Below are positions 1-31,612 of a DNA stretch of 64,000 nucleotides, one piece after another. Position 1 is the first letter of the stretch. Each line of letters opens with the position of its first letter. Both the position numbers and the translations under genes were made by a program. The DNA is from a virus (Duplodnaviria; Heunggongvirae; Uroviricota; Caudoviricetes): IMG/VR virus record IMGVR_UViG_3300040801_001888, one strand, 5' to 3'. The notes below the pieces were generated by a model, which ran no database searches, had not been told where the DNA came from, and saw only the letters and a list, made by a program, of their open reading frames with translations.

Positions 1-12
1 TGCACGGACGGC

Positions 13-1005
13 GTGGTGTGGACGCCAGCCATCGCGAACGACTCGGACACTTTGGCAGACGGCATCGTGGTTGCTGTGCTCGGGGAGAACGAGGCGTATA
101 TCCAGTACGCCGGCGAGGTGCCCTACTCGAACTCATTCACGCCGGGCAGCCTGCTGTACCTGAGCAGCGACGTCGCCGGCGAGATCGTCGAAACGCCGGG
201 CTCGATCCCGATGCTGATCGGCAAGGCGGTAAGCAGCTCGATGATCCTGCTGTCGCTGTCTCGCCTGGATGTGGTTCCGCGTAACGGGTTTCTGCAGGCG
301 GACTACCGGTTCAGCTTGGACGACACCGGCACCGATCCTGGCGTGGGCAACCTAGCCGTGAACAACACGGTGCCTTCCTCGGCGACGCGCTTGCTGGTCA
401 ACTCCATCGACGCGACAGGTTTTCAGCACATACTGTCGTGGAGGCACGTCTTCCCTGGCGACACCGTTACGATCGGCAGCGTCAGGGACAACGCCTACTA
501 CACCTACACCTTGACCGGGTATCCAATCAGTCACGGTTCTTGGTTGGAGCTTCCGGTACAGATCCTCGCTATCAGGGACACGCTGGGCGGCGGGCAACTG
601 GTCTCGTTGGAGTCCAGCCCAACGTCTGGCGCCGCCAAGCAGGTCTTGGTCCAGCGGCAAGTTGAGCAGCCGAACACGTTCACGGTTGGCACGCCAGTCT
701 ACAAAGATGCAGCGGGGTTATGGCAGCTAGCACAAGCCGATGACCTAAGCCGACTGGCTAACGGCTTCGTCATGAATCCGGGTCCGAAGATGTTCGACGT
801 CGCTAGCAGCGGCACTGTCTTAATCTCCGGTCACGGGTTCCCCGTTGGCAGCACGCTCTACCTGGACCCGACTATTCCCGGCGGGCTGACCGAGACCAGA
901 CCCGTCCTGAAGGGCACCTACGCCCAGGCGATCTTCGACGTGGTAGATGATCTTCGTCTCACCTACGTCAGCGAAGCAATAACAGACAACAGTTTGGAAC
1001 TCTAA
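13..1005 (+). CDS. virion fibre-like structural protein (may be 5'-truncated by the window edge)
   Basis: 330-aa ORF that opens the rightward late block, co-oriented and tightly packed with the fibre genes; no catalytic motif recognised. Confidence 0.4.
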   Translation: MVWTPAIANDSDTLADGIVVAVLGENEAYIQYAGEVPYSNSFTPGSLLYLSSDVAGEIVETPGSIPMLIGKAVSSSMILLSLSRLDVVPRNGFLQADYRFSLDDTGTDPGVGNLAVNNTVPSSATRLLVNSIDATGFQHILSWRHVFPGDTVTIGSVRDNAYYTYTLTGYPISHGSWLELPVQILAIRDTLGGGQLVSLESSPTSGAAKQVLVQRQVEQPNTFTVGTPVYKDAAGLWQLAQADDLSRLANGFVMNPGPKMFDVASSGTVLISGHGFPVGSTLYLDPTIPGGLTETRPVLKGTYAQAIFDVVDDLRLTYVSEAITDNSLEL

Positions 1006-1385
1006 TGCCGAACATCATTCCAGCGCGCGTTGCTCGCGTACTAGAACAAGCGAATCAGGCAGCGCACGGGTTCGCTGTTGGAGAAGCGGTAGCGTTCTCT
1101 GGCAATAAATTTGTCAAAGCAAAAGCCGATAGCTTTGCCATGCTTGCTTGGGGCGTTGTCAGCAAAGTCATTGACGTCGACAATTTTGAGTTCATTCGGT
1201 ACGGCAAGATGACCTGGCCTGCGCACGGGCTAACGCTCAATGCTTACTATTACGTCTCAGACGTTACTCCTGGTCTGCTGACACTTGTGCCACCGACAGA
1301 AGCCGGTAGGTTCCAACAAATGATGATGACCGCGATAACCGCTGACACCGTGTCAGTGTTCGACTATCCAGCTATCGAACTTTAA
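1005..1385 (+). CDS. hypothetical structural-module protein
   Basis: 126-aa ORF whose start overlaps the upstream stop (TAATG); same strand and spacing as the fibre genes. Confidence 0.4.
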   Translation: MPNIIPARVARVLEQANQAAHGFAVGEAVAFSGNKFVKAKADSFAMLAWGVVSKVIDVDNFEFIRYGKMTWPAHGLTLNAYYYVSDVTPGLLTLVPPTEAGRFQQMMMTAITADTVSVFDYPAIEL

Positions 1386-1399
1386 CGGAGAACAGATTC

Positions 1400-3052
1400 A
1401 TGCCGTGGGCAATCAAAGCTGGTGGTGGCGGACTTCGTCAAAAGGTGTCCAACATCGAGTTCGTCGAGAACGTGTGGGTCCGGATCGGCGTGCTCGCATC
1501 CGGGCAGGCAGTCGAGCTGGACGTCGAGTCTGGACACGGTCTCGTGGCGCACGGTATTACTCGTATTTCGCTCGGCAACTGGGGTGGCGCCAAGGGACCA
1601 TCGCTAGTGGTGCTTGGGCAATCCGGCGAGCCGATGCTCACTGGTGTTCGCTTGATCGATGGTGGGGCTGACTCGTCCCTCGTGGAATTGCGTGTCGGCG
1701 GTGCACCCAGTGGGTTGTCTGTCAAAAGCGTGGTCGTGACTGGCGAGTCTAGGATCAATGGGTTCACTTTCCAGTCGCCTGAGTTCATCGCGTCACCGGG
1801 GGGTACCGCGCTTGCTACATTCGCGGTAGCCTCGACCGACATGTTGATCAGCCAGTACAGCGGCGAACAACCGTTCCGCGTAGACGAAGAAGGTAGAGCG
1901 TGGTTCGGTAGTAAAACCCGGCAGATGCTCAATCTGTACGGGGACAGCTACAGCGCCGGCGTCCAATCCAGCACGCTCTACCAGCGATCTGGCGGAAACT
2001 TCAGCTGGCATAAAGGTGGCGTGCATAGTGATGCCTCACGCGATCCCGGAGCTGGTGGCGTCGAGCAGATGTGCTTGGACACGAATGGCGATTTGACAGT
2101 TGCTCGTCGCACATTGAACAAAGCTGCGCGTACCTCGCCTTCTGATCGCGAACTAATCGAATCGGCGTACTTGAACAGTCGTCTGCCGGTTGCTACCCCG
2201 CAACAAATAGTTCAATTCGATCTTGTCTCTGGTTCAAACAACAACTGGATCGAGGCTTTTCGGTTTAGGTCTGCGGGGTGGGGCAACTATTTCTTATTTT
2301 GGGTGTTTTCAGGTTACTACGGGAATTCTAGCTCACCTGTAGAATCGTGGTACGGTATAGGCTACCGTGGATCTAACCTATACGGGTGGGTATTATCTAC
2401 GCTTGCACATCACAGACGGGACGGTGCCTTCAGTCGCGTTGCGTTCAGCGGTGACGGTAATACTACCGGAACCAGTTATTTATCTCTCCAAAAAAGAGCA
2501 AGCGCGGGCTACCCTATAATCGCTGGAATGACCCAGCTTGGCGCGAGCAGGGTTGCCATGGACACAAGCGAGTCTGGTCGTGTCGTCGGTGGGTCTCCTC
2601 CTGGGACTCCAGTAGTACAGGTTGCACTTTCGTCCCGTGATAGTGATCGTTTCGGTTTTGCCAGCGAGAACCATTTCGACGGCGTCACTGACGGTGGCAA
2701 GCGCAAGATTCGAGGCTACCAGCGCGACCCGTGCGAGGTGCTCGGCGCGATTACCGATCCGACCGTTTACGACCGGCTGATGAAGGACGACCCCAGCGTG
2801 GAGGTAGGCTTCCCGCGTATGCGCGAGGACATCAACCGCTACAATGCCGAACGCGCATTGGAGGCGCTAGAGGATGCCCTGCTGCGCCGTATGGTCCGCA
2901 CACCAGGCGCAATCGTCGTGCCGAGGCAGCACGAGGCCGTGGAGTGGTTGGAGGACATCGTAGCGAACCCGCCGCGTGATCGGTACATCTCGCCAGCCGA
3001 CTACCTGGAGAAAGGCATCGACATTACCGATGAGCACCAGTTCTCGCTATGA
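1400..3052 (+). CDS. tail fibre / tailspike-like protein
   Basis: 550-aa Gly/Ser/Thr-rich beta-type composition; AGGAG-like RBS (ggagaacagattcATG); internal lower-GC patch around 2,200-2,520. Confidence 0.5.
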   Translation: MPWAIKAGGGGLRQKVSNIEFVENVWVRIGVLASGQAVELDVESGHGLVAHGITRISLGNWGGAKGPSLVVLGQSGEPMLTGVRLIDGGADSSLVELRVGGAPSGLSVKSVVVTGESRINGFTFQSPEFIASPGGTALATFAVASTDMLISQYSGEQPFRVDEEGRAWFGSKTRQMLNLYGDSYSAGVQSSTLYQRSGGNFSWHKGGVHSDASRDPGAGGVEQMCLDTNGDLTVARRTLNKAARTSPSDRELIESAYLNSRLPVATPQQIVQFDLVSGSNNNWIEAFRFRSAGWGNYFLFWVFSGYYGNSSSPVESWYGIGYRGSNLYGWVLSTLAHHRRDGAFSRVAFSGDGNTTGTSYLSLQKRASAGYPIIAGMTQLGASRVAMDTSESGRVVGGSPPGTPVVQVALSSRDSDRFGFASENHFDGVTDGGKRKIRGYQRDPCEVLGAITDPTVYDRLMKDDPSVEVGFPRMREDINRYNAERALEALEDALLRRMVRTPGAIVVPRQHEAVEWLEDIVANPPRDRYISPADYLEKGIDITDEHQFSL

Positions 3053-3648
3053 TCGTCAATATTCGCTTTTTCGATAACGACTCGCGCCGGGACATCCAAG
3101 GCAAGTGGTGGGCGGACCCGACGCGCGACGCTGTCGTTTATGATGGCATGGTAGTGTGGAAGAACGCGAAGCTCGATGCGGACTGCTCGCACGTCAATGG
3201 CGCCGCCATTCAAGACGACCGGCTGGTTTACGTAACAGCGGTCTCCAACAGCCGTCTAGCGCATGAGTGGCGCCAGAAGACCGAAAACGGTGGTGTCGTA
3301 TTTGATGTGGAGGGAAAGGTGATCCTCGGCGGTCTATCGATGCCACACTCACCGCGCATCTATGGCGATGACCTGTTGTTCTGCGAATCGGGCTACGGTG
3401 CTTTGCGGTCATTGGAGCATGGGTTTATCGCAGAGTTGCCAGGCTTTACGCGCGGGCTGCTGATAGCCGGCGACACTGCTTTTGTGGGGTTATCCGCGAT
3501 GCGATACGACGATGACTTCACACGCAATCTTCCGCTACGCGGATGGGTGCCGGAACCGGTCTGTGGGATTGCTGAAGTCGACATCGCAACGGGCGATTAC
3601 TCAGTTACGCCGATCTTGAACGAAACCGAAATCCTAGACATCTACTAA
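3049..3648 (+). CDS. hypothetical protein (fibre-associated)
   Basis: 199-aa ORF overlapping the upstream stop by 4 nt (translational coupling). Confidence 0.4.
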   Translation: MIVNIRFFDNDSRRDIQGKWWADPTRDAVVYDGMVVWKNAKLDADCSHVNGAAIQDDRLVYVTAVSNSRLAHEWRQKTENGGVVFDVEGKVILGGLSMPHSPRIYGDDLLFCESGYGALRSLEHGFIAELPGFTRGLLIAGDTAFVGLSAMRYDDDFTRNLPLRGWVPEPVCGIAEVDIATGDYSVTPILNETEILDIY

Positions 3649-3665
3649 TCCTTCGGTAACCAGAC

Positions 3666-6600
3666 ATGACCATCTTGAACAAGCCAACGTCTTCACTTAC
3701 CGAAGCCTTCTGCGGGTGCTATCGCGGGCGCATCGACGTGACGGTGCCCTACGTCGAGCCGGAGGGTGGGAACACGCAAGGTGAGTCATGGCTTGTAGCT
3801 GTGTCCGGATTGGCGGATGCGTCTTGGGCGGCGGTAGGTGTCGCTGGCAACATCGCAATCGATGACGTGCTGTTCTGGGAAGGCACAAAGTTTGTACTTA
3901 TCAAGACTGGACTGAGTGGTAGTGCTGGCACGACCGGTTGTGAAACCGCAGTAGGCGAGGTTGCCCCTCCGACCGTTTGCAACGGACGCTTTTGGATTCA
4001 GACGTTCCCGCCGGACGCCAACATCTGGTTGAACGTCTACGTTGACAGCACGTGGGTCACTCTGCAACAGATCGACCAGAACGGCAGGTTGGACCCGGCG
4101 TTCCTCGCTTTCATGCCAGCTACTTATCGCGGGCGAGTAGATGTCACGCAACCCTTCGCCATAACCGAGTCCACCGACGGCGAGTTTTGGTTTGTCGACA
4201 CGGACGGACTCGCCGATCCATCTTGGGCAGCGGTAGGCATCAGTGGCGATCTCACCGCAAACACGCTGCTCATTTGGGATGGCGCAGTCTTCATCCCAGC
4301 AGCGGGCGGCGGTGCTGGTACTCCTGGTCCGGAAGGACCGGAAGGCCCGGCTGGCGCGGCTGCAACGATCACAGCAGGCACGACCACGACAGGCGCCGCT
4401 GGTAGCGATGCCGACGTCACCAATAGTGGTACCAGCTCAGCAGCGGTTTTCGACTTTACGATTCCTCGGGGCAACACTGGCGCGAAGGGAGATCCAGGCG
4501 ATCCCGGTGCTGCTGCTACGATCACGGCAGGTACGACCACGACAGGACTCCCTGGCACTGACGCTGCCGTCACCAATAGCGGTACGTCTGCTGCGGCTGT
4601 CTTCGATTTTACGATTCCTCGTGGTGACAAGGGCGACCCTGGTTCTGGTGTCACTATCATCGGTACGGATACCTACACCAATATCATCGCAATCGGCGAT
4701 GCGAACCCAGGCGACATGTGGATAGTTAGCGCAGACAGCCCACCGGACGCGCTGGAGGGAGACGGACTGGTCTGGGATGGGGCGCAGTGGAACAACGTCG
4801 GACCTATTCGCGGTCCGGAGGGACCAATAGGACCAGAAGGCTCAGAGGGTCCAGAGGGTCCAGAGGGTCCAGAGGGTCCAGAGGGTCCAGAGGGTCCAGA
4901 AGGCCCTGCTGGCGTGGCTGCAACGATCGCGGTAGGCACCACCGTTACAGGCGCGGCTGGTAGCGATGCAGCTGTCTCGAACAGTGGCACCAGCGCGGCG
5001 GCGGTCTTCGACTTCACTATTCCTCGTGGAGATGACGGCGCCGCCGGTGTTAAAGGCGATACCGGCACGGCGGCTACGATCGCGGTTGGCAATACAAACA
5101 CGGGTATCGCGGGGTCTGATGCGTCCGTTACCAATAGCGGCACAAGTTCCGCCGCCGTCTTCAATTTTACAATTCCTCGCGGGCAGACGGGTGACAAGGG
5201 CGATGATGGCGACGCTGGACCTGCTGGTAGCGCAGCGACTATCACGGTAGGCACGACCACGACAGGCGCCGCTGGTAGCGATGCAGCTGTCTCGAATAGT
5301 GGCACCAGTGCGGCTGCAGTCTTTAACTTCACGATCCCTCGCGGTAATACCGGTGCGAAAGGCGACAAGGGCGATGCTGGTTCCGGCGTGACGATCGTAG
5401 GAACAGACACCTACGATAACATCATCGCTGTAGTAGACCCGACCGTTGGTGACATGTGGATCGTCAGCGCAGACAGCCCGCCAGACGCGATGGAGGGTGA
5501 CGGTATCGTGTGGGACGGTGCGCAGTGGAACAACGTTGGACCGATCCGTGGACCAGAAGGTCCAAAAGGTCCAGAAGGTCCAACTGGACCTCGCGTAACT
5601 CTTAAAGGTTCGGACACCTATGCCAACATCATTGCGATCACGGACGCCAATACGGGCGACCTGTGGCTCGCCAGCGAGGATAGCCCTGGTGATTCTGTGT
5701 TGCTAGGAGATGGTATCTCCTGGAACGGCACTGCGTGGATAAACGTTGGCCCTGTACGTGGTCCTGCCGGTCCTGCTGGTGCTGACGGTGCTGACGGGTC
5801 TGACGGGTCTGACGGAACAGCCGCCACCATTGTAGTAGGGACAACCACAACGGGGTCACCCGGCAGTGATGCAGCGGTCACGAATGCGGGAACCTCTACA
5901 TCCGCCGTCTTCAATTTCGTAATCCCACGTGGAGCTGTTGGCGCAAAAGGCGATCCTGGTGATGATGGGCAGACTGGACCGGAAGGTCCGGAAGGTCCGG
6001 AAGGTCCGGAAGGTCCTGAAGGTCCCGAAGGCGCCGAAGGTGCGGCGGCAACGATCACAGCGGGCACTACTACCACAGGCATTGCAGGAAGCGATGCAGC
6101 GGTATCCAACAGTGGCACCAGCGCGGCGGCAGTTTTCGACTTCACCATACCTCGCGGCGATAAGGGCGACACAGGTGACGCGGGTGTTAAAGGCGACCAA
6201 GGTGATGCTGGACCTGCTGGTAGCGCAGCGACGATCGCGGTAGGCACGACCACGACAGGCGCCGCCGGTAGCGATGCGGCGGTAGCGAATAGCGGCACCA
6301 GCGCGGCGGCAGTCTTCAACTTCACGATTCCGCGCGGCAACACGGGTGCGAAAGGTGATAAGGGTGACGCCGGCTCAGGTGTGACAATCGTAGGCACGGA
6401 CACCTATGCGAACATCATTGCTACCGCTGACCCGGCGGTTGGTGATATGTGGATCGTCAGCGTAGATAGCCCGCCGGACGCTTTAGCTGGTGACGGTTTG
6501 GTGTGGGACGGTGCGCAGTGGAACAACGTCGGACCGATCCGTGGCCCAGAAGGTCCAGAAGGTCCAGAAGGTCCAACTGGACCTCGCGTAACCCTTAAAG

Positions 6601-7679
6601 GCTCGGACACCTACGCCAACATCATTGCGATCACGGACGCCAATACCGGCGACCTATGGCTCGCAAGTGAAGATAGCCCAGGTGACTCTGTCTTGCTAGG
6701 AGACGGTATCTCTTGGAACGGGACTGCGTGGATAAATGTTGGCCCTGTACGTGGTCCTGCTGGACCAGTCGGTCCAGCTGGTACTGCCGCAACGATTACG
6801 GCGGGCACGACCACCACGGGCGCCGCAGGCACCGATGCGGCAGTGTCGAACAGCGGTACCAGTGCAGCGGCAGTCTTTGATTTCACCATCCCACAGGGTG
6901 ATCCGGGGTCTGCTGGTCCAGCCGGTGCCGATGGCGATGATGGCGCGAGCATCACCCTGAAAGGCACGGACACCTACGACAACATCACTGCCATAGTTGA
7001 TGCAGACCTAGGTGACCTCTGGATCGTCAGTGTTACGGATGGCAACGCCAATGAAGGCGACGGGCTCTCGTGGAACGGTACGGCGTGGATCAATATTGGA
7101 CCATTCCGTGGCCCGCAAGGCGGGGTCGGCCCGACTGGACCGGCTGGCTCTCCAGGACTTGTGTGGCGTGGTGCGTGGGCAACGTCAGTCGTCTATGAGG
7201 TCAACGATGTTGTGTCACATAACGGGTCTTCTTGGACTTGCATTGTCGCCAACACTGGGGCAGCGGGCGGAAACGAGCCGGAAGACGGCGCAACCGAGTG
7301 GGAGATTCTGGCCCAGAAAGGCGCGGACGGCACGGGCGGTGGGGGCGGGGTCGGCGTTGAGACCGTCGTCTCTATTGTTGACGCTACTGGCGATGTGACT
7401 ATCGATCTGGATGTTGCCCTGCAATATCGTATTAGCCAGGCTGATGCCGTTAACGTGATTCTACCGGACCCGACCGACACGGACGCCGGTGTGTCTCTTG
7501 TGGTGATCGTGGTACCGAACAACTTTGCCACCACGATCACCGGCAACGCAGTCTGGATGACACCGACTGGCGACCCACCACCGTTCAACATTGATCCTGG
7601 TCGGCGCAACATCGTCACCGCTATTTGGGATGTTGTTGAACTGGAGTGGCTCCTCATGTACCCGGCGCGAGAATTGTAA
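3666..7679 (+). CDS. collagen-like repeat fibre protein
   Basis: 1,337 aa with multiple Gly-X-Y tracts (GPEGPEGPEGPEGP, GPAGPAGADGADGSDG). The ~38-aa module AATITAGTTTTGAAGSDAAVSNSGTSAAAVFDFTIPRG recurs at least 8 times and ~65-aa blocks (GTDTY.NIIA..D...GD.W.VS.DSP.D...GDG..W.G..W.N.GP.RGP.GP) at least 5 times. The coding sequence shows ~1-kb nucleotide-level duplications. Confidence 0.75.
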   Translation: MTILNKPTSSLTEAFCGCYRGRIDVTVPYVEPEGGNTQGESWLVAVSGLADASWAAVGVAGNIAIDDVLFWEGTKFVLIKTGLSGSAGTTGCETAVGEVAPPTVCNGRFWIQTFPPDANIWLNVYVDSTWVTLQQIDQNGRLDPAFLAFMPATYRGRVDVTQPFAITESTDGEFWFVDTDGLADPSWAAVGISGDLTANTLLIWDGAVFIPAAGGGAGTPGPEGPEGPAGAAATITAGTTTTGAAGSDADVTNSGTSSAAVFDFTIPRGNTGAKGDPGDPGAAATITAGTTTTGLPGTDAAVTNSGTSAAAVFDFTIPRGDKGDPGSGVTIIGTDTYTNIIAIGDANPGDMWIVSADSPPDALEGDGLVWDGAQWNNVGPIRGPEGPIGPEGSEGPEGPEGPEGPEGPEGPEGPAGVAATIAVGTTVTGAAGSDAAVSNSGTSAAAVFDFTIPRGDDGAAGVKGDTGTAATIAVGNTNTGIAGSDASVTNSGTSSAAVFNFTIPRGQTGDKGDDGDAGPAGSAATITVGTTTTGAAGSDAAVSNSGTSAAAVFNFTIPRGNTGAKGDKGDAGSGVTIVGTDTYDNIIAVVDPTVGDMWIVSADSPPDAMEGDGIVWDGAQWNNVGPIRGPEGPKGPEGPTGPRVTLKGSDTYANIIAITDANTGDLWLASEDSPGDSVLLGDGISWNGTAWINVGPVRGPAGPAGADGADGSDGSDGTAATIVVGTTTTGSPGSDAAVTNAGTSTSAVFNFVIPRGAVGAKGDPGDDGQTGPEGPEGPEGPEGPEGPEGAEGAAATITAGTTTTGIAGSDAAVSNSGTSAAAVFDFTIPRGDKGDTGDAGVKGDQGDAGPAGSAATIAVGTTTTGAAGSDAAVANSGTSAAAVFNFTIPRGNTGAKGDKGDAGSGVTIVGTDTYANIIATADPAVGDMWIVSVDSPPDALAGDGLVWDGAQWNNVGPIRGPEGPEGPEGPTGPRVTLKGSDTYANIIAITDANTGDLWLASEDSPGDSVLLGDGISWNGTAWINVGPVRGPAGPVGPAGTAATITAGTTTTGAAGTDAAVSNSGTSAAAVFDFTIPQGDPGSAGPAGADGDDGASITLKGTDTYDNITAIVDADLGDLWIVSVTDGNANEGDGLSWNGTAWINIGPFRGPQGGVGPTGPAGSPGLVWRGAWATSVVYEVNDVVSHNGSSWTCIVANTGAAGGNEPEDGATEWEILAQKGADGTGGGGGVGVETVVSIVDATGDVTIDLDVALQYRISQADAVNVILPDPTDTDAGVSLVVIVVPNNFATTITGNAVWMTPTGDPPPFNIDPGRRNIVTAIWDVVELEWLLMYPAREL
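4845..4889. repeat. perfect 9-bp tandem repeat (GAGGGTCCA)x5 inside the collagen-like gene
   Basis: Encodes GPEGPEGPEG; similar tracts at 5,981-6,016 (GGAAGGTCC x4) and 6,541-6,575. Confidence 0.8.
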
Positions 7680-8266
7680 TGCTAGGTTATTTTCAAGCTA
7701 CGATGCTTCGTACCGACGTGGATGCGTCTACGGGCGGTCGCGGATTCCTGCTCGGCGGCGCCGAACTTGGACCACAGACGACTATGCGGACGCTGGAAAA
7801 CATGTTTGCTATTCGGTTGTTAGAAACGCCGTACCGGTGCTACGTCAATCGTATAGTGGCGCAGATCGACGATTTGTCCGCCGGTACAGAAGAAGGAGTG
7901 CGTTACTGCGGTGGCATTCTGACTGACGCAACTGGGAATACGATTCTAGAACAAACTGAGGTGAAGTTAATTCGCCGGTCTTTTCAGCGTACAGACTTCG
8001 TACTAGAACGTCCTGTCTTGCTAGACGCAGCGGTTCGATTTCGTGCAATGGTTATCGCTGACCTGGGTACGAGTGCGCCGCGTATTGCTCGATGTGACAA
8101 TGTCCCAGGCATGTTGGGGCAGACCACTGTAGCAGATGCTTCAAATGCTCCTGTTCCTCCGCCTGGTGTGTGGGCTCCAGTAGCCAACGCTAAGACTTCG
8201 ACGAATCTAAACCCTGACGAAGACTGCCCTATGATAGCTGTTTTGATCAATAGAGCACCGGATTGA
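7679..8266 (+). CDS. hypothetical protein
   Basis: ATG at 7,679 overlaps the TAA of the collagen-like gene (TAATG); GC is lower than the flanking genes. Confidence 0.4.
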   Translation: MLGYFQATMLRTDVDASTGGRGFLLGGAELGPQTTMRTLENMFAIRLLETPYRCYVNRIVAQIDDLSAGTEEGVRYCGGILTDATGNTILEQTEVKLIRRSFQRTDFVLERPVLLDAAVRFRAMVIADLGTSAPRIARCDNVPGMLGQTTVADASNAPVPPPGVWAPVANAKTSTNLNPDEDCPMIAVLINRAPD

Positions 8267-8473
8267 ATTTGGCAATACTGCCGATTAACCGTCCCGCTTG
8301 GCGACATTTACCTGACGAGGTACGATCTCATGAAGCGTTTTTCTACCATTATCCTGCGCTGCACAAGCCGGAGTGTTGTGCTACACGCCGCAGGTCTAGG
8401 TTGACTGCGGTCACGACTGGTAAAGCCCCCACAATGGTCCGCCGAGCGGCGGGCACAAATGCAGGAGATTTAG

Positions 8474-8767
8474 ATGAACGTAAAATCTACCGTAACCAAC
8501 GCATCCGTAGCCCTAGAGTGGGATTACACTGACGAAACCTACATCGATGGTTTTCGCATCTACGCCGACAACGAGCTGCGCTTGACCATCATGGACACCG
8601 CAAAGCGCAGCGTACCACTCGCCGACCTCGGGCTGAGCGTGGGTGTTCACATGCTCGTGGTCAAAGCATTCAACGTGGTCGGCGAGTCACATGTGAGTAA
8701 TCAAGTATTCCTCACCATCGTCGACGAGGAACCGGCTCCACCCACCAACTTTCGTGTCGCCTTTTAA
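8474..8767 (+). CDS. Ig/FN3-like domain protein
   Basis: 97 aa; strong RBS (gcaggagatttagATG). The pattern (EWDYTDETYIDGFRIY...LVVKAFNVVGES) resembles a fibronectin type III beta-sandwich. Confidence 0.45.
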   Translation: MNVKSTVTNASVALEWDYTDETYIDGFRIYADNELRLTIMDTAKRSVPLADLGLSVGVHMLVVKAFNVVGESHVSNQVFLTIVDEEPAPPTNFRVAF

Positions 8768-8800: not shown

Positions 8801-9589
8801 ATGGCGGCACCTAATTCCTACACGCCCAATCTCGGGCGGGTAGTGACCGAATTCATCAAGCCGAAGCGGGACGTGAACACCGTGTTCATCCACTGTACCG
8901 CGACTGATAACCCAACGTTTGATGCAAAGGCTTGCCACAACCTTCACGTCGATAGTAACGGCTGGAGCGCGATTGGCTACCACATGATCATCACCAGCGA
9001 TGGGTACAAAGACGGCGTTCAGATTCAATACGGACGTGACCTGGAGAGAACCCCGGCATCCCAATCGGGCTACAACGAGGGTACTATCGCCATTTCGTTG
9101 AATGGTCTGACTCTGAGCAAGTTCGGTCCGAACCAGCTTGACCAGCTTCGCTGGATTTGCGGCGAGATCAACAGTGCCTACGGTGGCAGGATGGAGTTTC
9201 GCGGGCACCGCGAAGTTTCCGCTAAAGAATGCCCCGTCATTGACTACCGCAAAGAACTCGGCCTCGATTCCGCTGGCTTCATGACTGGCGCCGCAGCACC
9301 GGGCGAGCCGCCGAAATCGCACATCCCAATGGTCGACATCATGGTCGCCGCCGCCCAGATCGGTTTGCACGATCATCATCCGCATGTGATCGTCTTGCGC
9401 GCACTTCTGGTACGCTACGGTGCTAGCAAAGACGCCCTCTTCCCGATCCGCGATAAGGAGTACCTGATGAAGTTCGACGACATCGTAAACGACGCCACCA
9501 AAGGCTTTCAGCGCGAGCAAGGTCTCGTTGATGACGGCATTGTTGGGCGTTCCACATGGGAGCGACTCCTTGATGTCGGTGATGACTAA
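8801..9589 (+). CDS. endolysin: N-acetylmuramoyl-L-alanine amidase (Amidase_2/PGRP, T7-lysozyme type) with a C-terminal peptidoglycan-binding domain
   Basis: VFIHCTATDNP...GWSAIGYHMII...YNEGTIAISLNG...GHREVSAKECP is the Amidase_2 zinc-amidase signature; the C-terminus VLRALLVRYGASKD...DDGIVGRSTWERLL matches a PG_binding_1-like repeat. Confidence 0.8.
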   Translation: MAAPNSYTPNLGRVVTEFIKPKRDVNTVFIHCTATDNPTFDAKACHNLHVDSNGWSAIGYHMIITSDGYKDGVQIQYGRDLERTPASQSGYNEGTIAISLNGLTLSKFGPNQLDQLRWICGEINSAYGGRMEFRGHREVSAKECPVIDYRKELGLDSAGFMTGAAAPGEPPKSHIPMVDIMVAAAQIGLHDHHPHVIVLRALLVRYGASKDALFPIRDKEYLMKFDDIVNDATKGFQREQGLVDDGIVGRSTWERLLDVGDD

Positions 9590-10378: not shown

Positions 10379-11227
10379 GTGATGCCAATTTCAATCTGTT
10401 TTCGTGGTCAACGCGCGGACCTTTCCAGAATTCCGCTGTATCTGATCGTTCGCACGCCACCGGAGATGGACGACGTTGTCGTCAACCGACTGACCCGACA
10501 GGTGGTGACGCTTCCGAGTCTTCAAGACGCGATGCTCCTCGAGGGCTACGCTGTCCAGCAGGGCGAGATGGACGACATGGTTAACTACCCTCTCTGGGAG
10601 ATGCAGAACGAGGGTATCTGGTCCGATAACGGACCGCTGCGAGGACCGGATATCTTCAGCCGTCGCCCGTTCATCATGTCCGTTACGGTGACAGGTGGCG
10701 ACTTGAGTTTCCAGTGGCCGAATCGTCAAGGGTGGTTCTACGCCCTCATCACCTGGGGCGACGGCAGCGATTCTGAGTTCCATAAGGAAGCGATTCCAGC
10801 CCACACGTTCCCAGCCCCCGGAACGTACCAGGTCAGCATTACCGGCAATCTCCCCGGACCGAACTTCGATGGGGGCGGAGACCGCCTGAAGGTCGTTGAG
10901 ATCCACCAATGGGGCGAGTGCATTCGGGACTCGTGGAGCAATGGGTTGAGAGGCTGCTCCAACTTAATCGTCAGTGCCACCGATCCGCTGGCTCATGCAA
11001 CGGACATCTCTTCGATGTTCCAAGACTGCTCGTTGGCAAATCCGCAAGCAGGCAACTGGGACACGAGCACCGTCTTGGATATGGACTATGCGTTCATGAA
11101 CGCTACGGCATTTAACCAAGATCTGTCCGGCTGGTGTGTGTCGAACATCGCTGTAGAGCCGACTGATTTCGCCACCGGGTCCGCCCTGCAGGCGCAGAAC
11201 TTCCCCGTCTGGGGAACTTGCCCGTAA
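10379..11227 (+). CDS. DUF285 / BspA-type leucine-rich-repeat protein
   Basis: Repeated DUF285-like motif ...SSMFQDCSLANPQAGNWDTSTVLDMDYAFMNATAFNQDLSGWCVSNI...; an unusual moron-like gene inside the late block. Confidence 0.55.
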   Translation: MMPISICFRGQRADLSRIPLYLIVRTPPEMDDVVVNRLTRQVVTLPSLQDAMLLEGYAVQQGEMDDMVNYPLWEMQNEGIWSDNGPLRGPDIFSRRPFIMSVTVTGGDLSFQWPNRQGWFYALITWGDGSDSEFHKEAIPAHTFPAPGTYQVSITGNLPGPNFDGGGDRLKVVEIHQWGECIRDSWSNGLRGCSNLIVSATDPLAHATDISSMFQDCSLANPQAGNWDTSTVLDMDYAFMNATAFNQDLSGWCVSNIAVEPTDFATGSALQAQNFPVWGTCP

Positions 11228-11239
11228 CCGGAAACCGCC

Positions 11240-11764
11240 ATGCTAGAACTCGTGAGAGTCGACCTCGTCGTGCTACCGACCCAGATGCTGCCGGAGGTCA
11301 AGGCGCACTGCAGGGTGGAGTTCACCCGCGACGACGAGTACTTGACCAACGCAACAGCGCGGGCTATCGCGGAGGTCGAGACGCTGACCAACCTCAGCAT
11401 CAACCCGTCCACATGGAAGTGGGACACCACGGACGAGCGATGGGAGAACGCGCAGACCGGGCACGTCCCGAAGATGCCGGTGCGCAGCGTCTACCAGATC
11501 GATGCCGTCGGCGGCAAGCAGATCGTCAAGCTGGACTACTTCGGGTTCGAGGCGGCCTTGCCGTCCGACAACCGCCGGGGCGTCTTCTACATCGAAGCCG
11601 GCTATGAGAAGGCAGCGGACGTCACCCCCGCTGTCATCAATCCGATCCTGATGCGCGCCGCGACGCTCTACGAGTACCGCGAGTCGCTCCAGACGGGCAG
11701 CTACTCAGAACTGCCCGACATGTCCGAGCGGGTGCTCAGCGGTCTGTGGAGGCCTTCGGTTTGA
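11240..11764 (+). CDS. putative head-tail joining/connector protein
   Basis: 174 aa; first of three small genes just before the major tail gene, placed as in lambda-like modules; no motif-level support. Confidence 0.4.
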   Translation: MLELVRVDLVVLPTQMLPEVKAHCRVEFTRDDEYLTNATARAIAEVETLTNLSINPSTWKWDTTDERWENAQTGHVPKMPVRSVYQIDAVGGKQIVKLDYFGFEAALPSDNRRGVFYIEAGYEKAADVTPAVINPILMRAATLYEYRESLQTGSYSELPDMSERVLSGLWRPSV

Positions 11765-12096
11765 AAGCGGGACGGCTTCGCTATCGCGTTCTCATCGAAC
11801 GCCCGATCCGATCTGTCGATACCTACGGCGCGCCGACCAAGGTCTGGGAGACCGTCGCGGAAGTGCCCGCCGACATCAGCTACGTCAGCGGTCGGGAGTT
11901 CACGGCGGGCGAGCGTGACTTGGCGGAGGCGACCATGCGCGTCTACGTACGCATCGACCCGACGATCGCCCTGGACCCGTCCATGCGGCTGACCAACGTG
12001 GACAACCTAGCCGAGTTCGACATCGTCGCCGTACTGCCCGACCGCACCGACACGATGGCGACGCTGGTGTGTAAGAGTGGTTCGAGAAACTCATGA
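11746..12096 (+). CDS. putative head-tail joining / tail completion protein
   Basis: 116 aa; synteny only. Confidence 0.4.
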   Translation: MEAFGLKAGRLRYRVLIERPIRSVDTYGAPTKVWETVAEVPADISYVSGREFTAGERDLAEATMRVYVRIDPTIALDPSMRLTNVDNLAEFDIVAVLPDRTDTMATLVCKSGSRNS

Positions 12097-14582: not shown

Positions 14583-17500
14583 ATGGCAAAGACACAACGC
14601 GTCATTCGCTACATCGAAGTCAAGGCTGATACCAAAGACTTCATCGATCAGCTCAACAAGATCGACAAGTCGACGGCGGCAGCGGCGGCGGAGCTTACCA
14701 AGCTCAACAAGGCGACGGCGTCGGTGGAGAGGTCCGCAAAAGCGACGGCATCGTCCCTGGCCCGGTTTGAAGCGAGCGTCGCCAAAGCATCCCGGGCGAT
14801 CAAGGGCTTCGGCATCATCTTCCTTGTCACGCAACTCTACCGGGCAGCGGAAGCCGCCGTGCGCTTCGCGGTATCCATGGCGCAGGCGACCGAGCAACTG
14901 ACCCTGATGCAGACCAGGCTCTCCCGCTTGGGCACGGGGGCGGGTGCGTCGAACTTGTCGCGGACAGCGGACCTTGCCGACAAGCTCGGACTGTCGCTGG
15001 CGGACGCCGCCGACAACGTGGGTCTGCTCTCGCCTGCGTTCGAGCGTGTCGGTGGGACGTTCGGGCAGGTCGCCACTTTCGCTGAGAACCTAACGCAATC
15101 CCTGCGCGTCTTCGGCACGGACGCCCGGCGCGCGCAGATCGTGACGGTTCAGCTGGCGCAAGCACTCGGGTCCGGGAACCTGGCTGGTGATGAGCTGCGG
15201 TCTCTCAATGAGAACGCCGGCGGGCTCGGGCTCCAGCTCGAAAAAGCTGTGCAGGAGATCTTGAACACGACCGACGGCATCAAGGAACTCGGGTCAGCGG
15301 GCAAGCTGACATCTGAAGTCGTCATGAAGGCGTTCGACAAGGTCTTCAAGAACCTTGAGAAGAGCATAAACGCCCTGCCCCCGCTGTTGTCGCAGGCTGC
15401 CAAGCGATTCGAGAACGCGTGGACGAATGCGATTTCCGCGATCGATAAGAAGCTCGGTGCTACGGAGTTCCTGACCAGGTTCTTGGAGGGCGCGACCGCT
15501 ACTCTTGAGATCAACACGGTCGCTAACGCGCCCGACCTTGCCACCGTTGCGGCAGCGCCGTCATCGGTTCGTTCCGAGGCGTTCTCTCAAGCCCAGATTC
15601 AGTTGGACCAGTTGATCCCGAAAGTTCAGCAGTTGCAGGCGGAGCTGGACGTTGCCAGGGAGAAAGGCGGTAGATCGTCAAACCAGATTATCAAGAACAA
15701 TACGCGCGAACTTAAGGTTCTGGAAGAGCAGATCGCTTTGCTCCAGAAGACGCAGGCGCTCATTATCTCCGTCGAGTTCGACTACTCCCGATCGCAGATT
15801 CAAGACACGATAGCGAAAGCCCGCGCAGACGCCGAAGCGGCGATGAATAAGCCGTACGGCGCGGCAGCGGTATCTTTCTTTGATGAAAATAACTTTACCG
15901 GCTACGACGAGATCATCGATAGAATCGGCAAAGTCATAAAACTGACCAAGGAAGGTGAGAAGAACCTCAGGGATTTCCTGCCGTTCATCATTCAGTCTGC
16001 GAAAGAAGCAGGCGTCGCGGTAGAGACGATGATCTCGAAGTTCAGCTTCGAGTCGGGGAACTTCACCAATTTCGACGCTGGAAAGAAAAGCAGTGCTAAG
16101 GGTCCGGCGCAGATTATCGAGGGCACTGCGAAAGATCTCGCTGAGAAATACAAGCTCAGTTACGACCTTATCCGAAACGGCGCGGACGGCTGGGTCGAGA
16201 ACATAAAGGCAGGGACGCTTTACTTCGCCGAAAAAATGAAAGAGGCGAATGGGGATGTAAAAGAGGCCGTCGCCAGGTACTACCTCGGGTCAGGGAAAGT
16301 CGATAAGTACGGGATGGACTACACGACCGGGAATAACGGCGGGCTGACAGGGACCAAGTACGCGAACATGCAGTACGAGCGGTCGATCAAGCTCATGGAA
16401 GCCCTCGGCAAAGAGACCATGATGGTCGGGGCGATCCAGGAGGGCATCGACAAACAACGTGAGCAGGCTTTCCGCGATCGAGAGGCGGAGCAGGAACGCC
16501 TGCTCAAGCTGCGCGAGCGCGCCATGAGCGAGGAAGAGGTCTTCGCGGCGAAGATGAAGTCGCTGCAAGCGGACCTCGACTCCGGCGCCATCACCCCGGA
16601 CGTCTACGCCGCCAACCTGCTCAAGGACATGAAACCGGTGGTGGCTTTCTATGAGGATATCAACGAACAGCAGAAGAAGCTCGATGACGCGGTTCGGGAC
16701 TCCGCGCAGGCGTGGGCGGAATGGCTAGAGCAGTTCGAAGAAATCTCGCCAGAGGTAGAGAAGCTGCGCGAGGGGTATAGGATGCTGATCGCTGACCTTG
16801 ATGAAGAGGTGATTACCCCCGACGAGTTCGTACGGCGCGCCGAACAACTGAGGAAGGCAGTCGGCGAATCCCTGACCGAGGTGGACAAGCTGTCTCAGGC
16901 GATTGGCGGCGAGCTGACCTCGGCATTCGGCTCGTGGATCGATTCTGCCATCGACGGCACCTTCAACCTTCGCGATGCGCTGGTCGATTTGCTGAAGGAG
17001 ATCACCAAGGTGATGCTCCAGCTTGCCTTGATCAATACGCTCAAGGCCAACGGGCTCGGTGGCTTCTTCGGTGTCAGTGGAAATGCTGCGTCCGTGACGG
17101 CTACCGTGGACTCGCTGAACAAGCTCGCATCGCCGCGAGCGATCCGAGTCGATGTGCCGGAAGAGGTCTCCGTCCGGGCGGTGATGGAGCCCACGCCCTT
17201 CTCAGTGACGCCTGAGATCAACATGCCCACGGTCGACCCCGTGGTCTTCTCCGCCATCCCGGACGTTGCGCCGATGTCGGGGCTGCCGGACAGCGTTCAT
17301 GTGAAAGCCATCATGGAGCCGACTGAGATCACTCCGCCGCCCGTGACACCGACCTTCGAAGCTCCCAAGGACATCCACATCGCCACCATCCTCGACCCGG
17401 TGCGGGTCTCGCCGATGCCACAGGCGGTCCACATCAACGCCGTGCTCGACCCGGTACAGGTCGCCCCGTTGCCGGCGGCGATGATGCCCCGGATGGTAGC

Positions 17501-17876
17501 AGCGCCGGCGCCTGAAGCGTACAGCGGACCGTCTACCTTTGCGATGCCGAGCGCCGATGCGGTCCGCTCAGGCTATCTGCGCACGCCGACCACCGTGCCC
17601 ATGGCGACCATGGACACGACCGCGATGGCGGAGGCGTTCGCGAAGTCGGGGGCGACAACGTCCGCGCCGCCGGTCACGGTCAACATCACCGAGTCGAGCG
17701 ATAAACAGAAGCAAGGATCGGTCTCGCAACGACAAGGGCAAGGCGGAGAATCCATCATCGATATCGTGGTTGCGCAGGTGAAGTCTTCCATGAACTCAGA
17801 CATAGCCCGTGGCAGGGGCGTAGCCGCCGCGTTAGAGGCCCAGTACGGGCTCAGCCGCATACCCGGAGCTTTCTAA
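14583..17876 (+). CDS. tail tape measure protein with an internal lytic-transglycosylase (SLT-like) motif
   Basis: 1,097 aa; long Ala/Leu/Glu/Lys-rich coiled-coil composition; position after the chaperone; the SLT-like signature FESGNF...SAKGPAQIIEGTAKDL sits mid-protein. Confidence 0.8.
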   Translation: MAKTQRVIRYIEVKADTKDFIDQLNKIDKSTAAAAAELTKLNKATASVERSAKATASSLARFEASVAKASRAIKGFGIIFLVTQLYRAAEAAVRFAVSMAQATEQLTLMQTRLSRLGTGAGASNLSRTADLADKLGLSLADAADNVGLLSPAFERVGGTFGQVATFAENLTQSLRVFGTDARRAQIVTVQLAQALGSGNLAGDELRSLNENAGGLGLQLEKAVQEILNTTDGIKELGSAGKLTSEVVMKAFDKVFKNLEKSINALPPLLSQAAKRFENAWTNAISAIDKKLGATEFLTRFLEGATATLEINTVANAPDLATVAAAPSSVRSEAFSQAQIQLDQLIPKVQQLQAELDVAREKGGRSSNQIIKNNTRELKVLEEQIALLQKTQALIISVEFDYSRSQIQDTIAKARADAEAAMNKPYGAAAVSFFDENNFTGYDEIIDRIGKVIKLTKEGEKNLRDFLPFIIQSAKEAGVAVETMISKFSFESGNFTNFDAGKKSSAKGPAQIIEGTAKDLAEKYKLSYDLIRNGADGWVENIKAGTLYFAEKMKEANGDVKEAVARYYLGSGKVDKYGMDYTTGNNGGLTGTKYANMQYERSIKLMEALGKETMMVGAIQEGIDKQREQAFRDREAEQERLLKLRERAMSEEEVFAAKMKSLQADLDSGAITPDVYAANLLKDMKPVVAFYEDINEQQKKLDDAVRDSAQAWAEWLEQFEEISPEVEKLREGYRMLIADLDEEVITPDEFVRRAEQLRKAVGESLTEVDKLSQAIGGELTSAFGSWIDSAIDGTFNLRDALVDLLKEITKVMLQLALINTLKANGLGGFFGVSGNAASVTATVDSLNKLASPRAIRVDVPEEVSVRAVMEPTPFSVTPEINMPTVDPVVFSAIPDVAPMSGLPDSVHVKAIMEPTEITPPPVTPTFEAPKDIHIATILDPVRVSPMPQAVHINAVLDPVQVAPLPAAMMPRMVAAPAPEAYSGPSTFAMPSADAVRSGYLRTPTTVPMATMDTTAMAEAFAKSGATTSAPPVTVNITESSDKQKQGSVSQRQGQGGESIIDIVVAQVKSSMNSDIARGRGVAAALEAQYGLSRIPGAF

Positions 17877-18738: not shown

Positions 18739-19118
18739 TGCACTGGGCGGTGAAGTACCTCGATCAGCAGTGGTCGCAACGGACCGACTGCTGGTGGTTC
18801 TTCCGCAAGGTGCAGATGGAGCAGTACGGCAGGATCATCCCGGAGATCGATGTTGATAGCCTGCACCTGCCGACCGTAATCCGCACGATCCGCGATCACG
18901 AGGAGCGCACCCGGTGGGCGGAGGTCCGCACTCCCATGGACGGTGACGGCGTCCTGCTCGGGCGTAGCGCCCGGCTCTCTCATGTCGGCATCTTCGTCGC
19001 GGTCGACGGCGGGAAAGTCCTGCACTGCGACCAGAAAGCTGGCACGCTACTTCAAGACCTACCAAGCCTCCGCCTCAACGGCTGGAACCACGTCCACTGG
19101 TACTCCCCATGCAACTGA
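18738..19118 (+). CDS. NlpC/P60-family tail protein (lambda K-like)
   Basis: Cys...His...His arrangement (DCWWFFRKV...SHVGIFV...VLHCD) typical of NlpC/P60 peptidases found in K-like tail assembly proteins; ATG at 18,738 overlaps the upstream TAA. Confidence 0.6.
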   Translation: MHWAVKYLDQQWSQRTDCWWFFRKVQMEQYGRIIPEIDVDSLHLPTVIRTIRDHEERTRWAEVRTPMDGDGVLLGRSARLSHVGIFVAVDGGKVLHCDQKAGTLLQDLPSLRLNGWNHVHWYSPCN

Positions 19119-25213: not shown

Positions 25214-25644
25214 ACATACTCATACTTTACGACGATGTTGGGTATATTCGTTCTATTAACGTATTAGAGGATGAAAGAGGCGTTACCCCATTTCTCGATG
25301 TGATTCCACCAGAACTACACTCGTTAGTGGTAGAAGTTGACTCTATGCCAGATCGGTACACCAAGAGAGTTATCGGTAACGAACTCGTCAGTATACCGGA
25401 ACCACCGGCGACAGAAGGGTATGAGTTCAGCCTAGAAAGTATGGAGTGGGTTCCCGATTTACAATTCATGGATGTAAACAACAGGCTGTTTCGTAACCGG
25501 CTGCTTGGTGACTGCGACTGGACGCAGCTTCCTGACGTGCCGTCTGAGACTAGCGAACAGTGGATATCCTATAGACAAGCATTGAGAGATTTACCCGCAC
25601 AACCCGGCTGGCCCAATGACATAGACTGGCCCGAACAACCTTGA
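25210..25644 (+). CDS. tail fibre assembly protein (Tfa-like)
   Basis: The C-terminus DWTQLPDVPSETSEQWISYRQALRDLPAQPGWPNDIDWPEQP matches the conserved Tfa/Caudo_TAP C-terminal motif; low GC, ATGA overlap with the fibre gene. Confidence 0.55.
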   Translation: MNILILYDDVGYIRSINVLEDERGVTPFLDVIPPELHSLVVEVDSMPDRYTKRVIGNELVSIPEPPATEGYEFSLESMEWVPDLQFMDVNNRLFRNRLLGDCDWTQLPDVPSETSEQWISYRQALRDLPAQPGWPNDIDWPEQP

Positions 25645-25654
25645 GGAGATAACC

Positions 25655-31418: not shown

Positions 31419-31612
31419 CAGTCGTCGTCCAGCGGTTCGGGGTTATCCCGCGAGTTGGCGCGGGCGATTAGGTTGTTGCATCGGGCTACTGCGTCAGTGC
31501 AGGCGCACCACAGCTGGTTCGGGGCTTCGGTGAAGTGGTCGCAATCCCGTTGCTTCTTGACGCTGTTGGCAGTGCAGACCCAACGGCGGTTACGCTTGGC
31601 GCAGTAGTTCAT
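31418..31612 (-). CDS. small Cys-rich (zinc-ribbon-like) protein
   Basis: 64 aa with CAKRNRRWVC...C...C...C. Confidence 0.3.
   Translation of the reverse strand: MNYCAKRNRRWVCTANSVKKQRDCDHFTEAPNQLWCACTDAVARCNNLIARANSRDNPEPLDDD

Follow-up and report, generated by a model that had tools for sequence, protein, structure and literature searches.

A single open reading frame of 1,337 aa occupies positions 3666-7679 on the plus strand of the 64,000-nt stretch of DNA analysed here (hereafter, the window). The 4,014-nt reading frame is unbroken, and its stop codon (TAA, 7677-7679) shares one base with the ATG of the next gene. The fibre gene cluster (1-8266) is localized upstream of the lysis cassette and the head-tail adaptor genes (11240-12096); tblastn gave no annotation for the upstream genes at 1-1005 and 1400-3052. 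The window also encodes a major tail protein, a tape-measure protein, a 2,034-aa J-like central fibre, an amidase and replication proteins, and no capsid genes were found in its 64,000 nt. The genome is clearly that of a phage, uncultured and siphovirus-like. The J-like gene (19109-25213) does not adjoin the fibre gene but lies about 11 kb beyond it. Its product is 26-29% identical to the J-like proteins of Achromobacter and Pseudomonas siphophages. The phage probably infects a Gram-negative proteobacterium.

The initial annotation described the locus as one collagen-like fibre gene, and profile searches agreed. The Pfam Collagen profile (PF01391) exceeded its cut-off of 27.2 bits with a score of 37.2, its best stretch lying at aa 756-793, and 21 PHROG families matched, mostly annotated as tail fibre or tail protein (best E = 1.2e-98; phrog_3904, 4120, 819, 5073 and 6320, all tail or tail-fibre families, E = 1e-61 to 1e-27). 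At E <= 0.01, the only other Pfam match was the CBM5/12 carbohydrate-binding module (PF02839), which scored 33.7 bits in the whole protein and 37.1 bits in a C-terminal fragment (cut-off 26.2); Phage_fiber_2 (PF03406), carried by some homologues, was not found in this protein. In a tblastn search, aa 1148-1220 aligned with proteins of Streptomyces phages and T4-like phages annotated as minor tail or tail fibre.

The protein is an ordered series of modules (Table 1). It opens with two B-like N-terminal domains and continues with nine A and six B modules, linked into an array by 16 short G-X-Y runs; the CBM5/12 module follows, and an orphan domain makes up the C-terminus. The runs, counted at four or more triplets (4-13 triplets each), sum to 291 aa, or 22% of the residues, and the longest uninterrupted ones have 12 and 13 triplets; the 13-triplet run is the only stretch scored as Collagen by Pfam. 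Thus, the term collagen-like, justified by a Pfam score above the cut-off, fits the linkers and not the bulk of the protein.

Table 1. Features of the fibre gene and of the strand opposite to it.
Feature	Position (nt)	Strand	Details	Evidence
Complete fibre gene	3666..7679	+	1,337 aa	ORF, Pfam, PHROG
N-terminal region	3717..4304	+	Presumed virion-attachment end	phmmer, domain alignment, hhalign
Nine A modules	4356..6899	+	39 aa, AATIxxGTTTTGxxGSDAxVxNSGTSxAAVFxFTIPRG; starts at aa 231, 282, 417, 468, 522, 718, 793, 853, 1040 (nt 4356, 4509, 4914, 5067, 5229, 5817, 6042, 6222, 6783)	Homologue comparison; not in Pfam
Six B modules	4629..7121	+	About 58-65 aa, VTIxGTDTYxNIIA..GDMWIV..GDGLVWDGxxWxNVGPxRGP; aa 322-386, 568-632, 638-702, 899-963, 969-1033, 1088-1152	
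G-X-Y run, 12 triplets	4812..4919	+	Holds perfect 9-bp tandem repeat 4843-4896, 6 x CAGAGGGTC	
Largest duplication, copy 1	5068..5796	+	A4-A5-B2-B'1	Self-blastn, codon comparison
G-X-Y run, 13 triplets	5931..6047	+	Holds perfect 9-bp tandem repeat 5979-6014, 4 x CCGGAAGGT, and two degenerate units	
Largest duplication, copy 2	6043..6789	+	A7-A8-B3-B'2	Self-blastn, codon comparison
G-X-Y run, 5 triplets	6543..6587	+	Holds perfect 9-bp tandem repeat 6546-6572, 3 x CCAGAAGGT	
CBM5/12 carbohydrate-binding module	7173..7301	+	aa 1170-1212	Pfam PF02839; tblastn
Orphan C-terminal domain	7302..7676	+	aa 1213-1337, Gly-rich linker first; presumed distal tip	
Four antisense ORFs	4124-4660, 4673-5410, 5618-6403, 6611-6973	-	178, 245, 261 and 120 aa	Stops, PHROG

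Both ends of the protein have few relatives. The N-terminal region comprises two divergent B-like domains of about 60 aa (aa 18-76 and 153-209) flanking a 'GRFWIQT...W' motif (aa 105-133); hhalign related a B-like domain to the B module with 95% probability over 25 columns, and an exhaustive phmmer search recovered 22 weak relatives. In a word-based homology search, the C-terminal 175 aa had no homologue. Monomer models from AlphaFold2, built on very shallow alignments of 9-12 rows, had a pLDDT below 50 in aa 1088-1337 outside the B module.

In contrast to these ends, which are unlike the termini of its metagenomic homologues (Phage_fiber_2, Collar, Peptidase_S74 or Kelch-type), the array has many counterparts. 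The A module was present in all 120 of the 120 best homologues, with 3-16 copies apiece, and neither A nor B has a Pfam entry. Metagenomic phage fibres (P0001-P0005) and BFVD entries carry the same 39-aa A module, sometimes B, and short G-X-Y linkers; the BFVD proteins that match the A-B model come from phages and are labelled baseplate, tail fibre or collagen triple-helix repeat. Judged from these matches, the A and B modules are common among phage tail-fibre proteins. The best metagenomic homologue is nevertheless only 38% identical over 65% of the query, and many homologues also contain a third module (FTPSVSxxGxISWTN) not present in this protein. A sequence search of the PDB returned synthetic collagen peptides only.

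Close relatives among these A/B-module fibres differ in module count, and within close pairs the difference amounts to entire modules or to individual G-X-Y triplets. P0003 and P0004 are 92.5% identical and differ by a 120-aa A-A indel; in L003, this indel is a perfect tandem duplication of 357 nt. P0007 and P0008 are distinguished by single-triplet indels.

Next to these modules, the initial annotation had reported near-identical duplications of about 750-990 bp that would be prone to recombination. The repeat positions it gave, those of the 9-bp tracts included, agreed with ours to within about 8 nt: GSGVTI[IV]GTDTY begins at 4641, 5379 and 6372 (spacings of 738 and 993 nt), and RVTLKGSDTYANIIAITD at 5592 and 6585. 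The near-identity, however, holds for the protein only. In self-blastn, the best match (5068-5796 against 6043-6789) has 81.4% DNA identity over 747 nt with 3 gaps, and the remaining self-matches range from 69 to 82%. The B' block, formed by the third and fifth B modules (aa 638-702 and 969-1033), is the only block with 100% protein identity, yet its DNA is 91.3% identical, every one of the 17 differences being synonymous (dS 0.445, dN 0). For the duplication core, dS was 0.545 and dN 0.036 (omega about 0.07). By these comparisons, the large repeats arose long ago and their DNA has since diverged. Distant exact repeats of at least 18 nt number only 12, the longest being 36 nt, and with so little exact DNA in common the large duplications are poor substrates for homologous recombination. 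We also considered whether such 'codon-scrambled repeats' could be a family-wide anti-recombination device. This idea was rejected, as the tandem duplication of P0003 is 100% identical in DNA, leaving no support beyond ordinary purifying selection.

The 9-bp tracts behave differently from the large repeats. Codons are identical inside each tract, and synonymous codons differ between tracts. In tract 1, the five further GGT-CCA-GAG units have P of about 6e-7 under the Gly/Pro/Glu codon usage of the gene itself, and thus its codon homogeneity is not due to chance. The tract-specific codon sets fit local replication slippage, in line with the slipped-strand length variation suggested by the initial annotation. 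Perfect short tandem repeats in coding sequence, as expected of a contingency locus, are present here as 6, 4 and 3 units of 9 bp. We infer from these patterns that the perfect (Gly-Pro-Glu) microsatellites are the only currently unstable elements of the gene. The three-unit tract (6543-6569) and its paralogue (5550-5576) have stayed equal in length since the duplication; the paralogous run 5550-5594 has the length of 6543-6587 and carries one G/A change (GPE-GPK-GPE).

On the opposite strand, the long ORFs (Table 1) are not real genes. Their stops land exactly on sense Tyr codons of the six B modules, and PHROG gave them only weak matches, which fall on antisense 'GPS' repeats, so the original description of them as spurious holds. 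Long antisense ORFs in such genes stem from amino-acid composition and should stay unannotated; within the repeat region of this gene, sense tyrosine codons are the only source of their stops.

We searched for other alleles. In JGI sample 3300040792, the identical gene lies on a contig of 25.7 kb, with one mismatch in 14,874 nt, outside the gene. The fibre gene was found on these two contigs only, and no length variation was seen between them, a comparison of what may not be independent samples. Searches of IMG/VR, JGI metagenome contigs, GTDB genomes and GenBank phages turned up no other close relative: the region 3000-8500 had no megablast match among 50,697 phage records, relatives of the N-terminal domain and relatives of the DUF4915 neighbour, sought in IMG/VR and the JGI metagenome contigs, were not confirmed, and a scan of GTDB genomes with the B-B' segment returned a single locus, from Lachnospiraceae, whose 67% identity was limited to a short segment and was uninformative. 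Consequently, the proposed built-in mechanism of fibre-length variation is upheld by related fibres that differ in modules and triplets but not by any allelic variation in this gene. We regard it as plausible for the fibre family and, for this gene, as an inference.

Taken together, the locus likely encodes a long accessory (side) fibre made of short collagen runs and beta-modules, with an old internal duplication and slippage-prone tracts, a reading that we hold with reasonable confidence. The fibre is probably homotrimeric. Our model suggests a 'beads on a string' rod, in which the 16 charge-rich G-X-Y segments (4-13 triplets) would form collagen-type triple helices, and the small A and B beta-modules clamping them would trimerise and fix the register of the short helices. 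At the distal end, the CBM5/12 and orphan domains would presumably bind host surface polysaccharide. We hypothesize that the array grew by ancient duplication of a super-unit of about 250-330 aa (A-A-A-B-B'), and that strong purifying selection then preserved the protein sequence as synonymous sites drifted apart. Slippage at the 9-bp tracts, which may be ongoing, would add or remove single triplets in frame, each worth about 0.9 nm of stalk. Since the N- and C-terminal domains are almost without relatives, any statement on the receptor or the site of attachment is a guess. The side-fibre location is putative.

Attachment to the tail is presumed, in that the gene lies apart from the J-like gene and the window holds no capsid genes. 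A head fibre, a capsid decoration or a neck whisker would suit a cluster placed upstream of the lysis and head-tail adaptor genes and far from the J-like gene, and collagen-like capsid accessory proteins such as SPP1 gp12 do exist (PMC6316719). We nonetheless find this quite improbable. Every annotated PHROG match belongs to a tail or tail-fibre family, the CBM5/12 stretch matches minor tail and tail fibre proteins, and one relative of the N-terminal domain (P0122) is encoded directly upstream of a Peptidase_S74 fibre/spike gene; moreover, 1,337 aa far exceeds the size of collagen-like capsid decorations (64 aa for SPP1 gp12). An origin by misassembly, through collapse or expansion of the repeats or the tandem threading of two strain alleles, is extremely unlikely. 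The sequence does come from a metagenome assembly, and most differences between the units are synonymous, as is expected of strain alleles, but the reading frame is intact throughout, the duplicated units are parted by unique sequence (module A6 and the 13-triplet run), and the second contig carries the identical gene, which makes an artefact unlikely. No exact repeat exceeds the 54-nt microsatellite, the next being 36 nt, so that ordinary reads and k-mers span every repeat. The risk of collapse or expansion raised by the initial annotation is therefore low.

It has also to be asked whether the locus is actively hypervariable, with frequent homologous recombination and slippage generating rapid length or antigenic variation. 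The perfect 9-bp tracts would favour this, as would the indels that separate close homologues elsewhere, and collagen-like repeats have been treated as recombination or deletion hotspots affecting host range (PMC7242381; PMC5601072). Set against these points, the large repeats, at 69-81% DNA identity and dS of about 0.55, have long coexisted without homogenisation or loss, the paralogous three-unit tract is unchanged in length after duplication, and the two contigs are identical in the gene. We therefore consider active hypervariability unlikely, and retain the reading of a side fibre in which instability would be confined to the 9-bp tracts.

Precedent for trimeric collagen-like side-tail proteins comes from EPclA and EPclB of Escherichia coli O157:H7 prophages (PMC3368898). 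Like them, the protein described here is phage-encoded, has G-X-Y segments flanked by non-collagen modules (trimerisation modules in EPcl) and a charge-rich collagen without hydroxyproline, and a role as a trimeric side tail fibre is proposed. EPcl proteins, however, have one long collagen domain together with PfN, PCoil and PfC or Phage_fiber_2 (PMC3368898), an arrangement that the Pfam scan did not find here, where 16 short runs are distributed among 15 A/B beta-modules and the protein ends in CBM5/12. Collagen-like repeats likewise occur in host-recognition proteins of Streptococcus thermophilus phages (antireceptors) and in an ORF of the Sputnik/Guarani virophages, in which in-frame repeat deletions (81 nt in Guarani) alter host range and recombination hotspots have been proposed (PMC5601072; PMC7242381). 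In those systems the variation was seen by experiment, whereas in this gene none was seen in two contigs and the large repeats have diverged. The tailspike ORF18 of Geobacillus virus E2 (7chu) has a single pectin-lyase-type domain; our protein has no beta-helix enzyme domain. The gene is an ordinary though well-preserved example of the known modular collagen-plus-beta-module fibre design.

The animal multiplexins, collagens XV and XVIII, also use a small trimerisation domain, of about 50 residues (3n3f, 9bnb; PMC7852327). Module B shows no sequence similarity to it (4-10% identity); the multiplexin domain occurs once per chain, at the C-terminus next to the triple helix, while B is internal and occurs six times. 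The likeness is thus one of analogy and not of membership. Building on this analogy, one speculative proposal, which we put forward as doubtful, is that B, and perhaps A, would be an uncatalogued, widespread phage 'collagen clamp', a trimerisation and registration knot of about 55 residues convergent with the collagen XV/XVIII domain. It would let hydroxyproline-free helices of 4-13 triplets fold in series, with the 9-bp microsatellites acting as slippage-tunable spacers that set fibre reach. If B were indeed a compact trimerising clamp, it could find use in engineered collagen-like materials and in the re-targeting of phage fibres.

The biological point is modest. The gene provides a full-length example of a design found very commonly among uncultured phages and absent from Pfam and, by sequence, from the PDB. 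It also indicates that repeat identity at the protein level may mask synonymous divergence (dS of about 0.5 here), and thus that such genes are not necessarily recombination-prone or hard to assemble.

The collagen-like fibre gene is real and represents, in an ordinary form, a widespread class of modular collagen-like phage fibres. Its protein of 1,337 aa is encoded by one ORF (3666-7679, + strand) and matches 21 PHROG families, the majority tail fibre or tail protein (best E = 1.2e-98), which bears out its initial annotation as a phage fibre. Its best relatives in a search of 5.8 billion proteins reach only 38% identity, over 65% of its length. The repetitive body runs col-A-col-A-B / col12-A-A-A-B-B' / col7-A-col13-A-A-B-B' / A-B'', where A, B, B' and B'' are the repeated modules, col is a G-X-Y run with its number of triplets, and short G-X-Y runs form the joints. 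Runs of at least four triplets sum to 291 aa (22% of the protein), with mostly Pro and Asp at position X and mostly Ala, Glu, Thr and Lys at position Y; the Pfam Collagen match is limited to aa 756-793.

Module A occurs in all 120 best homologues, in 3-16 copies apiece, and module B in a few of them. Neither these modules nor the N-terminal domain have a Pfam-A entry even at E <= 10 or a sequence relative in the PDB, and homology search detected no relatives of the C-terminal domain. In a profile comparison, the N-terminal domains shared the B-module core GDxWxV...GDxxxWDGxxW (hhalign probability 95%, 25 columns). Just 22 weak relatives of the N-terminal domain were found among 1.84 billion representatives; the gene of one, P0122, lies directly 5' of a Peptidase_S74 fibre/spike gene. 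Another match, P0124 (863 aa; matched at query aa 50-94), is probably no true homologue: it contains 15 near-identical Arg-, Ser- and Thr-rich repeats of ~57 aa, as would result from reading a tandem DNA repeat in the wrong frame.

Features of the fibre gene and its surroundings (nucleotide positions unless marked aa)
Feature	Position	Strand	Detail
GSGVTI[IV]GTDTY motif	starts 4641, 5379, 6372	+	
RVTLKGSDTYANIIAITD block	starts 5592, 6585	+	
Tract 1, perfect 9-bp tandem repeat	4843-4896		6 x CAGAGGGTC
Tract 2, perfect 9-bp tandem repeat	5979-6014		4 x CCGGAAGGT
Tract 3, perfect 9-bp tandem repeat	6546-6572		3 x CCAGAAGGT
Two divergent ~60-aa domains	aa 18-76, 153-209		in N-terminal 217 aa
Nine A modules			39 aa each; AATIxxGTTTTGxxGSDAxVxNSGTSxAAVFxFTIPRG
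Six B modules			~58-65 aa; VTIxGTDTYxNIIA..GDMWIV..GDGLVWDGxxWxNVGPxRGP
CBM5/12 module	aa 1170-1212		after repetitive body; Pfam 33.7-37.1 bits, cut-off 26.2
C-terminal domain	protein end, after CBM5/12		125 aa
Antisense ORFs inside fibre gene		-	178, 245, 261, 120 aa
A-A pair copies in homologue P0003	aa 966-1084, 1086-1204		duplication absent from P0004
Three genes without family match	13-1005, 1005-1385, 1400-3052	+	
Amidase endolysin	8801-9589		
Head-tail adaptor and head-closure protein	11240-12096		
Major tail protein	12501		
Tape-measure protein	14583-17876		
J-like central fibre	19109-25213		2,034 aa
Thymidylate synthase	31609-32586	-	
SPFH/Band-7 protein	41199-42065	-	
Dam-type methyltransferase	59921-60574	-	

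The motif blocks and three 9-bp tracts were found at most ~8 nt from the positions first assigned to them, and the sequence holds what was described, except that the large duplications, called near-identical, are not so in DNA. The strongest (5068-5796 vs 6043-6789) is 81.4% identical over 747 nt with three gaps, and the remaining self-matches in the gene have 69-82% identity (self-blastn). Only 12 distant exact repeats of at least 18 nt were present in the gene, the longest of 36 nt. Between the super-units at aa 468-718 and 793-1040, 136 codons are identical, 79 differ synonymously and 26 non-synonymously. Using the Nei-Gojobori method, we obtained a dS of 0.545 and a dN of 0.036 for the core pair (aa 516-702 vs 847-1033), 0.445 and 0 for the B' pair, and dS from 0.5 to saturated with dN of 0.02-0.26 for other A-module pairs. 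The B' pair differs at 17 of 195 nt, all 17 synonymous. Since synonymous divergence is high and protein change small, the large duplications are ancient and have been kept by purifying selection on the protein. Neither gene conversion nor recent unequal crossing-over is indicated.

The microsatellites behave differently from the large duplications. Codons are identical inside each of the three, while the synonymous sets differ by tract (GGT-CCA-GAG, GGT-CCG-GAA, GGT-CCA-GAA); five further identical units would have a probability of ~6e-7 under the gene's own codon usage. Such uniformity is the footprint that local slippage would be expected to leave, in line with the earlier proposal of slippage-prone tracts. 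At its end, tract 2 has two degenerate units (CCT, CCC), suggesting that an older expansion is decaying. Tract 3 has the same length as its paralogue at 5550-5576, with one G/A change between them; thus, short tracts can stay stable for the whole time since duplication.

Given the divergence of the large repeats, recombination between them is unlikely to make this gene an actively hypervariable locus, and what probability this retains comes mostly from the microsatellites. Collagen-like repeats have been recorded as deletion or recombination hotspots affecting host range (PMC7242381; PMC5601072), and length change is evident elsewhere in the family. P0003 and P0004 are 92.5% identical, their 120-aa difference being one A-A pair; the additional pair is a 357-nt tandem duplication with 100% DNA identity (12896-13612 of L003, the locus encoding P0003), and is either very recent or an assembly artefact of that contig. 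P0001 and P0002 (94% identical) differ by indels of 59 aa and 9 aa, and P0007 and P0008 by single G-X-Y triplets. For the present gene, an assembly artefact as the source of the repeat structure is highly improbable, because the exact protein is encoded on a second contig (JGI 3300040792 Ga0450796_281304, 25.7 kb), whose single mismatch to the window over 14,874 nt lies outside the fibre gene, and no exact repeat in the gene exceeds 54 nt. These two copies, the sole ones found, show no allelic variation, and no close relative was found in searches of IMG/VR, JGI metagenome contigs and GTDB genomes. The initial annotation is partly supported: it was correct on the fibre, on the tracts being prone to slippage and on the antisense ORFs being spurious, and it overstated how similar the repeats are and how great the risks of recombination and misassembly are.

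The antisense ORFs are by-products of composition. In the wobble-matched antisense frame, stops are possible only opposite a sense Tyr, or His/Gln after a T-ending codon. All antisense stops in the repeat region fall on the six B-module Tyr codons (aa 337, 583, 652, 914, 983 and 1104), so that the ORFs extend from one to the next; their PHROG matches are all weak and fall where the collagen repeat is mirrored as 'GPS'.

The window represents a siphovirus-like phage, which also has genes for a DNA polymerase, helicases, a primase and thymidylate synthase; a search of 50,697 deposited phages found no close relative. A proteobacterial host is hinted at by the J-like protein, which shares 26-29% identity with its counterparts in Achromobacter and Pseudomonas siphophages. 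GC falls from ~0.60 to 0.49-0.53 at 22000-26000, in the 3' part of the J-like gene and just beyond, a drop that could reflect horizontal exchange of the receptor-binding end. The three genes without family match, the first of which may run off the window's left end, cluster with the fibre gene upstream of the lysis cassette. Directly 5' of the fibre gene, a 199-aa protein (3049-3648, +) has DUF4915 as its sole match, in that profile's C-terminal half only (positions 143-301 of 316; E = 2.9e-39), which places this domain in a phage fibre cluster. The start of a 195-aa gene (7679-8266, +) overlaps the fibre stop by one base (TAATG); its product matches nothing in Pfam or PHROG and might serve the fibre as an assembly chaperone or distal partner. 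The protein encoded at 10379-11227 (+), after the lysis genes and before the head-tail adaptor, has a DUF285 domain and also matches PKD weakly. A 687-aa protein (43546-45609, -; phrog_1735, E = 7.6e-187) shares 38-39% identity with proteins from the Stenotrophomonas phages Paxi and Piffle and from Vi01-like Salmonella phages, some of these proteins being annotated 'putative DNA-directed RNA polymerase'.

The fibre gene precedes both the lysis cassette and the head-tail adaptors, the 64-kb window contains no recognised capsid, portal or terminase gene, and SPP1 gp12 is a precedent for collagen-like capsid proteins (PMC6316719). A head fibre, capsid decoration or neck whisker is nevertheless unlikely, considering the protein's size, its matches to tail-fibre families and its CBM. 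Trimeric collagen-like side-tail proteins are encoded by E. coli prophages (PMC3368898).

In AlphaFold2 models, aa 276-395 (A2-B1) averaged a pLDDT of 79 (~90 in the B part), and B'' reached 95-98 in a second model; B is predicted to fold as strand-helix-strand-strand-strand. A Foldseek search of viral predicted structures with the A2-B1 model returned phage proteins annotated as baseplate, tail fibre or collagen triple-helix repeat, with Agrobacterium, Erwinia, Cronobacter, Ralstonia, Gordonia and crAss-like phages among the sources. Judging from collagens in general, segments of 4-13 triplets that lack hydroxyproline would probably not be stable by themselves; the most economical mechanism would therefore be that the modules flanking the short G-X-Y segments clamp and register the triple helices. 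Multiplexin domains start in-register triple-helix assembly (PMC7852327), and since their sequence likeness to module B is weak (4-10% identity), we treat the resemblance as a functional lead, not homology. Modular collagen-like phage fibres are widespread and poorly catalogued, and the most interesting possibility left by this gene is that module B may act like the multiplexin domain, as a compact trimerisation knot that sets collagen chains in register.
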